DNA from: Candidatus Scalindua sp.
GTDB taxonomy: Bacteria > Planctomycetota > Brocadiia > Brocadiales > Scalinduaceae
Assembly (NCBI GenBank): GCA_031316235.1
Contig: JALDRA010000001.1
Coordinates: forward strand, 3,960,001-3,992,000
Length of the DNA stretch: 32,000 nucleotides
Direction: 5' to 3'
Below, one piece after another: positions 5,348-9,884 of this stretch. Numbering within the stretch: the first letter of the stretch is position 1; each line of letters begins with the position of its first letter. The notes under the pieces are model-generated. The model had not been told where the DNA came from. It saw only the letters and a list, made by a program, of their open reading frames with translations, and did no database searches. The translations under genes were made by a program, and so were the position numbers.

Positions 5348-8300
5348 TTAACGGCAGGGTACAAATCTAACAACCGATTTTTTGTCCCTAACCATCTCTC
5401 CAAGAAGGTTTAAAGTTCTATCGATCTCCTCCATTGTATTACCAAGGCCTAATGAGAAGCGGAGTGAACAGTGTGCCTCTTCTTCAGACAGTCCCATTGC
5501 CAGCAAGGCGTACGATGGTTTCGGTGATCCTGAACGGCACGCCGAACCTGAAGAGAGACTGACTCCTTTCTGATCAAGGGCAAGAACCACTGATTCCCCG
5601 CGTATCCCCGGTAAAGTTATATTGAGTGTATTGGGTAATCTTTTTTCAGAGTTGGCATTTAACTTCGAATCAGTAATTAATGACCTGATACCATTCTCCA
5701 GCCTGTCACGCAGCCGTTTTACCCTGCTCATTTCAGGTAATCTCTGCACCGAAAGTTCAGCGGCCTTACCGAGCCCGACAATCCCTAATACGTTTTCAGT
5801 TCCGGCACGCATTCCTCCCTCCTGATTGCCACCACTGACAAGAGGTTCCAGGACAACACCCTTCCGAATATATAAAACGCCGATCCCCTTGGGGCCATAT
5901 AACTTGTGGCCAGAAAGTGTAAGAAAATCAACCCCAAGTTCCGTGACATCGATCGGAATCTTACCAACTGCCTGTACACAATCAGTATGAAAAAGAACAT
6001 TCTGTTCCTTCGCCACATGCACCAGCTCTTCGATCGGTTGAATAGAGCCTGTTTCGTTGTTGGCCATCATAACACTTACAAGACATGTCCTATCGGTAAT
6101 CGCAGAGCGTAAATCTTCTGGATTGATGCTCTTCTTACGGTCAACCTCAAGATAGGTAACGGAAAAACCATGACTTTCAAGCCACTTGCATGTATTCATA
6201 ACTGATGGGTGTTCTATTGATGTTGTAATAATATGGTTTTTTGTACCCCAGTTTGCAAATGCAACACCCTTTATGGCAAGATTGTTTGCCTCTGAACCGC
6301 TGCCGGTAAATGTTATCCGCCGTGCAGTGCAATTAAGGAGCTGCCCTACACTTCTTCGTGCGGACTCAACTGCAAACCTTGCATCTTTTCCTTCGCTGTA
6401 AATACTGGAAGGATTTCCATGGCCGTTTGCTACATAGCGCTGCATGATATCCTTCACTTCCAGGTCAAGGGGCGTTGTTGCATTGTGGTCGAGATAAATA
6501 CGTTGTGTAGTTGTTCGAGATTCCTTACAGGAATCCTCCAGGCCAGCGGAGTCACCATACTCGCCAGAGTCAATGACTACCTTTTCCTCAGTCTCTGAAG
6601 CAGAGACCACTTCACATAAGAGAGTCTTATATACCGGGAATCCAGAAATAGGATCGTAACGCTGGAGATCTGTTAACTCATTGATATTGCAATTTTTCCA
6701 CCGGTCAGGTCCAATGGGCCCTCCACCGCCCATGTTGGCATCAATAGAGCCCCTTACAATATCATCGGTGACCAATGCACGCATGGTAACCTTACCCCGT
6801 TCGTTGATAATATGCACAAGATCTCCATTCTTGATATCCCGTTTTTCTGCATCATCGGTATTCATTGTTACCGTCGGTTCCGGTCTCTCTCTCAATAATC
6901 CGGCTATTCCATGATGCTGTGACCGGAAGTCGGTATTCACACGCGAACCCGAATTGAAGATCAGAGGGAATTTTTCTGAAAGCTCTGGTTGGGCAAGTGG
7001 TCCTTCACCTGGTTCAGTGTAGACGGGCAACGGATCATAACCGTGCTCTTCAAGAATTGTCGAGGCTATTTCAAATTTTCCCGTTGGAGTGTTGAAGCCA
7101 GGTTTACCGTCAGCTCGCAGCAACCCCTTTTCCCACTTCTTATACTCCATCATTACCGAAGGTATTTCTACGGTTCCTTCTGCACTTTTCACCTCTTCAA
7201 GGGTAAAGCCTGAGTCCTTTAACACATGTCGAAGGAGTTCATCCTCATTTTGGGGGTAGAGATTCCCATACCCAAGACGTTGCGCCAGTTCCGCAAGGAT
7301 AAAGAAATCGTTACGTGCCTCACCTACCGGCTCAACAACTTTTTCCCGTATACGAAATATCGGGCCGTAAACCATATACGACTCAATTTCATACATGGTT
7401 GTTGCCGGCAGAACAATGTCAGCGTATGCAGCATCTGCCGTTAACTGGCGATCAATCGTAACGAGAAAATCAAGACTGTTCAATGTCTTTCTCCATATAG
7501 CGGGTTGAGGCCAGGAAGTAATAATTGAACCTCCGAGGATTATGAGAGATCGTACAGGATAAGGTTTTCCTTCCAGAACTGCATCCGGTAATGCAATTGC
7601 ATGAGACTCCCCCCGATATTCACTGTAGACAGGAAATCGATCTCTGCCTAAAGCCTTTCGGACATCAGGATTGGCAACGTGCCCTTCTCGATTGACGGGA
7701 AATTGGTTCTGCCGCATCGAAAAGCAACGACCACCAGGGACATCAAGCTGTCTGGCAATGGCCCAGAGAACCATCGTAGCCCGAATAGCCTGTACCCCGC
7801 TGTCGCTATACTCAAGTCCCGTATACATGACCGTTGACGCCCCATCTGCCTCTGCAATCCTCCTGGCAAGAGATCTGATCGTCTCAGCCGGAATATCCGA
7901 AATAGTTTCCACGGTTTCTGGTGTAAAATGCTGCACATACCTGGCAAAATCATCAAAACCTACCGTCCAATCCTTTATAAAACCCTCATCATACAATTCC
8001 TCTTCTATGAGCACATTACACATTCCCAGAGCGAGGGCACCATCAGTACCGGAACGAATGGGAATCCACTCCGCATCAGTAAGTTTTGCCGTCATGGTTC
8101 TTCTCGGATCAATGACTACAACTTGAGCTCCCCGTTTTTGAGCGTTCACAATCCTGCTGAGATCGAGTGGTGGGCAATCAGTAGCCGGGTTTGTTCCCCA
8201 GACCACGATTAATTGAGAATTTTCAATGTCAGAAAACATGTTCATAAGCATTCCCCCCATGGTCACATGGGGAGCAATCATTGCAAATGAAACATAACAG

Positions 8301-8740
8301 AGGGCACCTACTCCCAGAGTATTGGGAGAACCGAACGGAAACAAGACACTCGATGCCGAAGAGACAGCAACGCCCTTTGGTTGAAAACGGTCACACATGG
8401 AAAGCTCGAAGCTTCCCCGTCCTGTATAAATTGCAGCAGCTTCCGGACCAGATTCATTTTTAATTTCATTAAGTTTCGCTGTAATAATTTCATAAGCGTT
8501 GTCCCACGATATCCTTTCAAATTCAAGTGTACCTTTCTTCCCTTTACGTCTCATTGGATACCGTAAGCGGTCTTTGGAGTAAACAATTTCTGCGGAATAT
8601 TCACCGAGCTTGCAAATCATCCCCAGATGAGAACTTTTGTCAGGCTGTACCTTACCAATTTTCCCCTCTTCATCATACGTAACCGTAACCCAGCAACCTG
8701 CGGGGCATATACCGCATATTACGTTTCTCTCATTTTTCAT
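5348..8740 (-). CDS. Mo/W-bis(pyranopterin) oxidoreductase (acetylene-hydratase-like) fused to a NifS/IscS-type cysteine desulfurase; candidate metallopterin-dependent ergothioneine synthase (MES-type)
   Basis: Single uninterrupted 1130-aa ORF. aa 1-~712 contain a C9-x2-C12-x3-C16...C43 [4Fe-4S] motif, no twin-arginine leader, a molybdopterin-oxidoreductase core, and a C-terminal dinucleotide-binding barrel (DIKNGDLVHIINERGKVTMRALVTDDIVRGSI). aa ~713-746 are an acidic linker. aa ~747-1125 are a class-V aminotransferase (YLDHNATTP, FTGSGSEANN, SGHKLYGPKGIG with Lys946, SSGSAC with Cys1068). It lies directly downstream of an EgtD-like gene. Confidence 0.8.
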   Translation of the reverse strand: MKNERNVICGICPAGCWVTVTYDEEGKIGKVQPDKSSHLGMICKLGEYSAEIVYSKDRLRYPMRRKGKKGTLEFERISWDNAYEIITAKLNEIKNESGPEAAAIYTGRGSFELSMCDRFQPKGVAVSSASSVLFPFGSPNTLGVGALCYVSFAMIAPHVTMGGMLMNMFSDIENSQLIVVWGTNPATDCPPLDLSRIVNAQKRGAQVVVIDPRRTMTAKLTDAEWIPIRSGTDGALALGMCNVLIEEELYDEGFIKDWTVGFDDFARYVQHFTPETVETISDIPAETIRSLARRIAEADGASTVMYTGLEYSDSGVQAIRATMVLWAIARQLDVPGGRCFSMRQNQFPVNREGHVANPDVRKALGRDRFPVYSEYRGESHAIALPDAVLEGKPYPVRSLIILGGSIITSWPQPAIWRKTLNSLDFLVTIDRQLTADAAYADIVLPATTMYEIESYMVYGPIFRIREKVVEPVGEARNDFFILAELAQRLGYGNLYPQNEDELLRHVLKDSGFTLEEVKSAEGTVEIPSVMMEYKKWEKGLLRADGKPGFNTPTGKFEIASTILEEHGYDPLPVYTEPGEGPLAQPELSEKFPLIFNSGSRVNTDFRSQHHGIAGLLRERPEPTVTMNTDDAEKRDIKNGDLVHIINERGKVTMRALVTDDIVRGSIDANMGGGGPIGPDRWKNCNINELTDLQRYDPISGFPVYKTLLCEVVSASETEEKVVIDSGEYGDSAGLEDSCKESRTTTQRIYLDHNATTPLDLEVKDIMQRYVANGHGNPSSIYSEGKDARFAVESARRSVGQLLNCTARRITFTGSGSEANNLAIKGVAFANWGTKNHIITTSIEHPSVMNTCKWLESHGFSVTYLEVDRKKSINPEDLRSAITDRTCLVSVMMANNETGSIQPIEELVHVAKEQNVLFHTDCVQAVGKIPIDVTELGVDFLTLSGHKLYGPKGIGVLYIRKGVVLEPLVSGGNQEGGMRAGTENVLGIVGLGKAAELSVQRLPEMSRVKRLRDRLENGIRSLITDSKLNANSEKRLPNTLNITLPGIRGESVVLALDQKGVSLSSGSACRSGSPKPSYALLAMGLSEEEAHCSLRFSLGLGNTMEEIDRTLNLLGEMVRDKKSVVRFVPCR

Positions 8741-8879: not shown

Positions 8880-9884
8880 TTAAAACATATCGGTTGGTGC
8901 AAACAAATTGAGGCTGAATTTCTTTTCAGGATCAAACCACTGTCTCTCCACGGAAAACCCAGCCTTTTCAGCTAAAATATTAATCTCATTGAGTGAGTAC
9001 TTAAACGAGTTTTCCGTGTGAATCCTCTCCTTCTCAGCAAGCGATATCTCCAGGTCGAGATCTCCTATGATGACCTTCTGGTCGCAATTGCTTGTTAAGT
9101 ACATCTCAACCCGACCAATTTTCTCATTATATGTTACGTCATGATGGAACTTCTCAAGATTGAAATCTCCTCCCAGCTCATGATTGATACGGGCAAGGAG
9201 GTTCAGGTTGAATTCTGCTGTAACACCCTGTTCATCATCGTAGGCTTTTTCCAGGAGATCCCGATCTTTTTTCAGATCTATACCGATTAATAACCGATCA
9301 TTCGGGAGTGTGAATTCCTGGATACGGTTAAGTAATTGTACCGCTTCAGATCTATCCAGATTACCAACACTCGATCCCAGCCACGTAATGAGTTTTGCTT
9401 GATCTCCCTGTGTCTTTAACTGATCAAGTCCTTCATCATAGTGAGCGGCAACAGCCGTGATCTCTAAATCCGGATATGTTTTAAGCAATTCGTATGAACT
9501 CTCCTTAAGCATCTGGCGAGATATGTCAATCGGAGTATAAGAACTCAGTCCCTGCCCCTGAAGAAATGCCTCAATCAAAATCCTTGTTTTTTTTGAACTC
9601 CCGCTCCCCAATTCAACAAGCGTAATCTCTTCAGGAAATTGCGAAATGATGTCACATACGTGAATCTCAAGAATATGTGTTTCTGCACGTGTCAGGTAGT
9701 ATTCCGGGAGTTCACAGATCTTCTCAAACAACTGGGAACCTGCGTGATCGTAAAAGTATACAAAGGGAAGAGATTTTGGATCGGATGTAAGCCCTGTTTT
9801 TACATCAGAAGAAAACTCCTGAGCGGAATTCTCATCTTGAATTGCAATAAACGTTAATCGTTCCTCAATCGTTGTAGTTGACAC
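8880..9884 (-). CDS. egtD: L-histidine N-alpha-methyltransferase (EgtD/EanA family, hercynine synthase)
   Basis: 334-aa ORF with a GTG start and AAGGAG 9 nt upstream. EgtD-type motifs are present: [38 protein letters not shown], SAM-binding [35 protein letters not shown] and HTENSFKY. Confidence 0.85.
   Translation of the reverse strand: [334 protein letters not shown]

Follow-up and report, generated by a model that had tools for sequence, protein, structure and literature searches.

We analyzed a 32,000-nucleotide stretch of the genome of Candidatus Scalindua sp. (assembly GCA_031316235.1, contig JALDRA010000001.1, positions 3,960,001 to 3,992,000 of the forward strand), hereafter called the window, for a pair of genes at 5348-9884 that very probably encode a pathway to ergothioneine. 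Scalindua is a genus of marine anaerobic ammonium-oxidizing (anammox) bacteria (Planctomycetota; Brocadiales; Scalinduaceae). Translation of the window gave, on the reverse strand, an open reading frame of 334 amino acids with a GTG start preceded by GGAAGGAG, which is the methyltransferase gene egtD, and downstream of it one uninterrupted polypeptide of 1130 amino acids with an ATG start, assigned here to metallopterin-dependent ergothioneine synthase (MES). The 334- and 1130-amino-acid products, with the same neighbors, were called independently in two other assemblies, and NCBI holds an identical MES protein (MDR4506393.1/MEZ6157418.1). An initial annotation of this DNA had described EgtD-type motifs in the frame at 8880-9884 and, 139 nucleotides farther on the same strand, a 1130-residue fusion with an N-terminal 4Fe-4S motif. 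All three quoted motifs occur in the translation, the coordinates are exact, the Pfam domains of the fusion are full length, and the cysteines of the iron-sulfur motif align with those of the clusters in acetylene hydratase and in the MES of Caldithrix abyssi (CaMES). The parts of the locus are as follows.

8880-9884, minus strand: egtD, L-histidine N-alpha-methyltransferase (Methyltransf_33, TIGR03438)
8741-8879, minus strand: spacer between egtD and MES, 139 nucleotides, AT-rich (32% GC)
5348-8740, minus strand: MES, metallopterin-dependent ergothioneine synthase, 1130 amino acids in one polypeptide
8612-8716, minus strand: Fe4S4 motif C9-x2-C12-x3-C16...C43 (CaMES C14, C17, C21, and C48)
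7280-8569, minus strand: Molybdopterin domain, binding bis-molybdopterin guanine dinucleotide (bis-MGD), residues 58-487 (PF00384, E = 1e-44, full model)
8297-8299, minus strand: codon of C148, the predicted molybdenum or tungsten (Mo/W) ligand, within the Molybdopterin domain (CaMES C153)
6623-6961, minus strand: Molydop_binding (dinucleotide-binding) domain, residues 594-706 (PF01568, E = 4.5e-20)
6500-6622, minus strand: linker from the pterin to the desulfurase module, residues 707-747, poorly conserved, with a family consensus that is mostly 'x'
5417-6499, minus strand: class-V cysteine desulfurase module dependent on pyridoxal phosphate (PLP) (Aminotran_5, residues 748-1108, E = 6e-83, full model)
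5903-5905, minus strand: codon of the PLP lysine K946 (CaMES K952)
5537-5539, minus strand: codon of the persulfide cysteine C1068 (CaMES C1074)
5468-5470, minus strand: codon of C1091 (CaMES C1097)
5351-5416, minus strand: C-terminal tail ending in ...VRFVPCR, the proposed sulfur shuttle to the pterin site
5354-5356, minus strand: codon of the penultimate C1129, in the C-terminal tail (CaMES C1135)

The strong E-values and full model coverage of the domain matches indicate more than a chance resemblance for both reading frames. A Pfam profile search assigned the methyltransferase to Methyltransf_33 (E = 1e-108), and with the NCBIfam model TIGR03438 (egtD_ergothio) it scored 367.8 bits, over the equivalog cutoff of 290.9, which places it inside the EgtD group. 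Its nearest structures in the PDB were those of mycobacterial EgtD (4uy5/4pim, E = 1e-64). The mycobacterial enzyme contacts histidine through Y39, F47, Y56, T163, N166, Y206, T213, E282, and S284 (PMC8593015), and the counterparts in the window protein are Y45, F53, Y62, S172, N175, Y215, T222, E291, and S293; the further substrate-contact residues G170, F225, and M261 are also kept. The sole change among the histidine contacts is the conservative substitution T163S, which is found in 14 of 65 MES-linked EgtDs as well. Since the histidine-contact residues are intact, there is strong support for the prediction that the gene beside MES makes trimethylhistidine (hercynine).

MES was described by Beliaeva and Seebeck (JACS Au, 2022) as an acetylene-hydratase-like N-terminal module fused to a cysteine desulfurase, and Escherichia coli expressing any of four such enzymes (CaMES or one of three from elsewhere) turned trimethylhistidine into ergothioneine (PMC9516567). 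The initial annotation had described the class, its architecture, the C. abyssi source, and the Seebeck group correctly but took the enzyme to have been characterized once, where four homologues were shown to be active. Each of the CaMES mutations C153S, K952A, C1074S, and C1135S abolished ergothioneine formation, with a 2000-fold drop for C1135S, and C1097S merely halved the output. The sulfur transfer in CaMES was obligatorily intramolecular, and the pterin site swapped sulfur reversibly between ergothioneine and trimethylhistidine (PMC9516567).

The window fusion was 71% identical to CaMES (84% positives) over 1129 amino acids, with a single gap of one residue that falls in the linker; the C. 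abyssi reference was locus L010, recovered from the genome collection. Identities to the three other experimentally active enzymes were 60% (EaMES), 58% (AbMES), and 57% (hvMES), values that are lower bounds, the three sequences being optical character recognition text of the supplement. All nine residues that define MES are kept (C9, C12, C16, C43, C148, K946, C1068, C1091, and C1129). In an alignment of 81 family members, each of these positions is kept in 76 to 81 sequences, and the positions are invariant save for truncations at contig ends and for C1091, where three sequences carry another residue; this is the very cysteine (CaMES C1097) found to be dispensable by mutagenesis in PMC9516567. 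The Fe4S4 cysteines are kept in every member not truncated by a contig end. C148 lies in a GVGALCYVS motif identical to that of CaMES, is invariant in 81 of 81 members, and aligns with the metal-ligand cysteine of acetylene hydratase, the best solved-structure relative of the N-terminal module (PDB 2E7Z, E = 1e-69). The match to acetylene hydratase amounted to 238.7 bits, and the fusion is thus nearest to MES.

The 139-nucleotide spacer is free of Rfam matches and of terminator-like sites on its coding strand, in keeping with co-transcription of egtD and MES; in other Scalindua loci, the length of the spacer ranges from 33 to 576 nucleotides. On the strength of orthology and residue conservation, we consider it highly probable that egtD and MES, which are probably co-transcribed, form an O2-independent two-gene ergothioneine pathway in this anammox planctomycete. 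The metallopterin route to ergothioneine that the initial annotation had put forward is strongly supported by the 71% identity to CaMES and the nine conserved residues.

For the window MES, judged from the same orthology, the mechanism put forward for CaMES is the best supported. EgtD would first convert histidine to trimethylhistidine. The C-terminal PLP desulfurase (K946) would then move the sulfur of cysteine onto C1068 as a persulfide and from there to C1129, the last residue but one of the flexible C-terminal tail, and C1129 would load the Mo/W center (ligand C148) of the N-terminal bis-pterin module to give a metal(VI)=S sulfido species. The imidazole C2 of trimethylhistidine would attack this sulfur, ergothioneine would depart, and the metal(IV) would be resulfurated, so that the overall reaction would proceed without O2 and without an external electron acceptor. 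We infer by analogy that the Scalindua enzyme acts as CaMES does, and the choice between molybdenum and tungsten, the details of C-S bond formation, and any physiological role of ergothioneine in anammox cells are likewise matters of inference. Enzymes with bis-MGD, nitrite oxidoreductase among them, are produced by anammox bacteria, and a supply of cofactor for MES is therefore plausible.

Several points weigh against this assignment. The EgtD of the window has serine at position T163. MES has yet to be purified in full-length form, and AbMES, a bona fide homologue, gave just 0.4 µM ergothioneine in E. coli (PMC9516567); a search of the PDB gave no MES structure. The relay of sulfur and the chemistry at the metal=S group are therefore proposals, and the low output of AbMES means that membership in the family by sequence is no guarantee of high activity. 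A promoter scan upstream of egtD turned up no convincing site, with planctomycete promoters lying outside the models of the scan. In the literature searched, no main text links ergothioneine with Scalindua or Kuenenia, and no ergothioneine measurement was found for anammox bacteria; the two publications naming both ergothioneine and anammox dealt, by their titles and abstracts, with unrelated subjects.

Among the alternatives, the one that survives best is that the same two enzymes make another product, either by inserting selenium to give selenoneine or by sulfurizing a heterocycle other than trimethylhistidine. The desulfurase module is of class V, whose members commonly show selenocysteine lyase activity, and weak selenocysteine lyase matches were obtained (114 bits with the NCBIfam model SclA, for which the cutoff is 525, and E = 1e-62 with PDB 3gzc), whereas the top matches of the module were cysteine desulfurases (up to E = 4.5e-103) and the window reading frames included no selenium-metabolism gene. 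The MES authors themselves considered that heterocycle sulfurization may be more widespread (PMC9516567). However, the histidine contacts of EgtD are intact, and the fusion shares 71% identity with an enzyme that makes ergothioneine from trimethylhistidine and cysteine, so we regard another product as very unlikely.

Still less likely is that the fusion serves generally in maturation or sulfur mobilization (Fe-S assembly or molybdenum cofactor [Moco] sulfuration, as in IscS or ABA3) and stands beside egtD by coincidence. NCBI labels it 'IscS subfamily cysteine desulfurase,' and it passed the broad subfamily model NF002806 (322.6 bits against a cutoff of 304), which was the sole desulfurase model passed. 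It scored below the equivalog cutoffs for NifS (TIGR03402, 482.7 against 530.75) and IscS (TIGR02006, 383.8 against 643.2) and below that of NF010611 (377.9 against 548), and identity with a housekeeping NifS/IscS was rejected on these NCBIfam scores. The MES-specific C-terminal cysteine tail and the metal-ligand cysteine of the pterin module are kept, and the pairing with egtD recurs in 66 of 80 loci from many phyla. Finally, that egtD and MES are relics no longer expressed or active in the host, for which the lack of a recognizable sigma-70-type promoter upstream of egtD speaks, is scarcely credible, with both reading frames intact, all catalytic residues present, the cassette kept by five or more Scalinduaceae species representatives, and both genes under purifying selection (ratios of nonsynonymous to synonymous substitution rates [dN/dS] of 0.08 for MES and 0.13 for EgtD against the closest orthologue, L001).

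The pathway reading also accords with the wider distribution of the gene pair. MES relatives occurred in at least 452 species-representative genomes, so the route is not rare, contrary to the initial annotation. In a comparison set of 80 species-representative loci, from bacterial and archaeal phyla, an EgtD homologue adjoined MES in 66, and several of the exceptions were contig-end cases; the gene adjacency is thus conserved in relatives. All-versus-all clustering of the reading frames of 81 loci gave 73 with MES, 66 with EgtD, and at most 15 for the next clusters, and a third conserved pathway gene was accordingly rejected. MES is unusually conserved, at 57 to 72% identity across bacterial and archaeal phyla, while its partner EgtD drops to 33 to 50%.

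Two types of cassette were seen. In the first, egtD lies upstream of MES; this type comprises Scalinduaceae, including the window, a Gemmatimonadota-type group, and a few other loci (L001-L006, L049, L051, L054, L056, L059, and L065). In the second, egtD lies downstream (L007-L048 and others), and this type is found in Kuenenia, Loosdrechtia, Nitrospirota, Thermodesulfobacteriota, and methanogen-related archaea. EgtD identity to the window protein was 48 to 73% within the Scalinduaceae and Gemmatimonadota-type groups, just 33 to 39% in the other loci with egtD upstream, and 34 to 42% in the second type, where MES was 62 to 72% identical. The EgtD of C. abyssi, as printed in PMC9516567, belongs to the same clade as that of the window (about 50% identity, 100% bootstrap). 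In four-group quartets (neighbor joining, 300 replicates), EgtD of Scalindua grouped with the Gemmatimonadota type against Brocadiaceae and Nitrospirota in 100% of replicates, whereas MES of Scalindua joined Brocadiaceae and Nitrospirota in 68 to 75%. MES quartets with C. abyssi were split (43% versus 46%) and favor neither a C. abyssi-like donor of the whole cassette nor a swap of egtD alone. The disagreement between the EgtD and MES trees is a hint that the partner was replaced or that the acquisitions were separate.

Two loci binned as 'Thermodesulfobacteriota' and 'Candidatus Fermentibacteria' (L004 and L049) carry a Scalindua-type cassette, with egtD upstream, MES at 81%, and EgtD at 65 to 66% identity; these look like mis-binning or very recent transfer. 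Six loci of the Desulfomonilaceae/Thermodesulfobacteriota type (L018, L020, L023, L027, L034, and L046) have a tungsten-type aldehyde:ferredoxin oxidoreductase about 4.5 kb upstream of MES, and a 4Fe-4S ferredoxin-like protein and two metallo-beta-lactamase-fold genes also precede MES there on the same strand.

In eight loci of the upstream type, an ATP-binding cassette (ABC) ATPase of 250 amino acids and a 505-residue fusion of an OpuAC binding domain to a permease lie beside the pair on the same strand (L003:4583-6849, L005:7241-9507, and L006:4039-6305, also L031, L051, L054, L056, and L077). L003, L005, and L006 come from other Scalindua species, in which the pair and the ProX-like betaine ABC transporter form a same-strand cluster of four genes; the window contains no such betaine-type ABC transporter. 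Among PDB entries, the binding domain matched the ergothioneine transporter EgtUC best (E of about 1e-40). Identity with EgtUV was rejected: the L003 protein has Phe for Gly244 and Tyr for Phe293 (Streptococcus pneumoniae numbering), which are the states of ProX, a glycine-betaine binder, and its domain order is reversed relative to EgtU. That the Scalinduaceae cassette was gained or rebuilt independently of the other anammox family and that marine anammox bacteria make and exchange hercynine or ergothioneine is, taken jointly, a speculative and rather unlikely proposition. If it were true, marine anammox bacteria would be a significant source of ergothioneine in oxygen-minimum zones and anoxic sediments, and the compound might protect a metabolism based on nitric oxide (NO), hydroxylamine, and hydrazine.

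The MES class and the mechanism proposed for it have been in the literature since 2022, as has the presence of MES in Scalindua, Kuenenia, and Jettenia, and the window locus is a known system in an already listed genus, which makes the finding correct but ordinary. Table S1 of PMC9516567 gives species with MES homologues that keep C153, K952, C1074, C1097, and C1135; its anammox rows are Ca. Scalindua brodae, S. japonica, and Scalindua sp. AMX11, along with three Kuenenia entries, three Jettenia entries, and a Brocadiaceae bacterium. The suggestion that MES was unreported in this lineage thus fails on the three Scalindua genomes of that table, to which the link between anammox and MES is confined. 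The expectation that automated pipelines would mislabel the locus held for MES and failed for egtD, whose label, 'L-histidine N(alpha)-methyltransferase,' is correct. No MES-specific model was returned by NCBIfam release 20.0 (June 2026), and with NF002806 alone passed, the Prokaryotic Genome Annotation Pipeline (PGAP) of NCBI arrives at its IscS name for the fusion. Automated pathway reconstructions of anammox genomes will consequently miss ergothioneine synthesis, in a family that has grown from roughly 80 genomes in 2022 to its present size. Ergothioneine, the predicted product, is a redox-active thione, and the host is a strict anaerobe whose metabolism involves NO and hydrazine. The practical value lies in the annotation fix and in metabolomics interest, and the locus carries little weight as a discovery.

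In the remainder of the window, the reading frames of at least 110 amino acids gave no domain of the EgtB, EanB, rhodanese, EgtC, or EgtE type, a negative that applies to the window and not to the genome at large, in agreement with the earlier statement that genes for egtB, egtC, egtE, or a rhodanese are missing from the window. Those frames encode CstA, a PEBP/YbhB-family protein, two bactofilins, CoaE, Rho, MnmG, RNase Y, a DNA polymerase III subunit, IleRS, ResB, and a cytochrome c assembly protein, and the rest are unannotated. A Moco or other riboswitch near the pair was rejected: an Rfam scan of the whole window at the gathering threshold matched one tRNA gene only (13248-13319, minus strand), and a permissive scan of 4400-12300 gave no match. 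The PEBP/YbhB-family gene (4605-5207, minus strand), which encodes a hydrophobic N-terminal segment, lies 140 nucleotides downstream of MES on the same strand; it stands beside MES only in the closest relative, L001, and is therefore probably outside the pathway. Adjacent bactofilin-domain genes (3430-3987 and 4067-4591, both minus strand) are likewise syntenic with the cassette only in L001, and the bactofilin of 185 amino acids begins with four CxxC pairs (CPYC...CRIC...CFKC...CNHC) and looks like a zinc ribbon fused to a bactofilin domain. Five reading frames of 143 to 359 amino acids had no Pfam match at an E-value of 0.001 or lower; they include 12635-13066 and 13474-14553 (both minus strand), and three form a tight same-strand run at 10-2210 (plus strand).

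Of the known systems, C. abyssi MES (UniProt A0A7V4WV16) shares the single-polypeptide architecture of the window protein (1136 and 1130 amino acids, respectively), but the N terminus of the window protein is five residues shorter and the linker sequences are unrelated. The hosts also differ, a thermophilic vent bacterium versus a marine anammox planctomycete, and the activity shown in E. coli is that of CaMES. Closer still is the MES of Scalindua sp. AMX11 (P0003), 88% identical over its full length. The three Scalindua of Table S1 (brodae, japonica, and AMX11) belong to the same genus and family, while the window derives from a different species-level genome; their entries are supplementary rows only, none of which was expressed or discussed (PMC9516567). 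In the Brocadiaceae (Kuenenia, Loosdrechtia, and Jettenia), MES is about 69 to 72% identical and has egtD next to it on the same strand, but the order is reversed (MES and then egtD), and the EgtD is only 38 to 40% identical and falls in another EgtD clade.

Among more distant relatives, acetylene hydratase shares the four-cysteine Fe4S4 motif and the aligned metal-ligand cysteine with the window MES. It is a tungsten enzyme that has no fused desulfurase and performs hydration instead of sulfur transfer, and the context of its second cluster cysteine is SCDINC, compared with ICPAGC in the window. Identity with acetylene hydratase was rejected at this site: the aspartate directly after the second Fe4S4 cysteine, which we take to be catalytic in acetylene hydratase, is replaced by Pro13 in the window protein and by Pro, Ser, or Ala in all 79 members covering the position. 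The desulfurases IscS and NifS (9wep, 4eb5, and 1p3w) share the PLP lysine and the persulfide-loop cysteine (SSGSAC) with the C-terminal module. Unlike them, the window MES has a conserved C-terminal ...RFVPCR tail and, by analogy with CaMES, would hand its sulfur intramolecularly to the fused pterin module. EanB (rhodanese-like) and EgtB/Egt1 (nonheme iron sulfoxide synthases) share the substrate and product of the MES route, but their protein families and chemistry are unrelated to MES.

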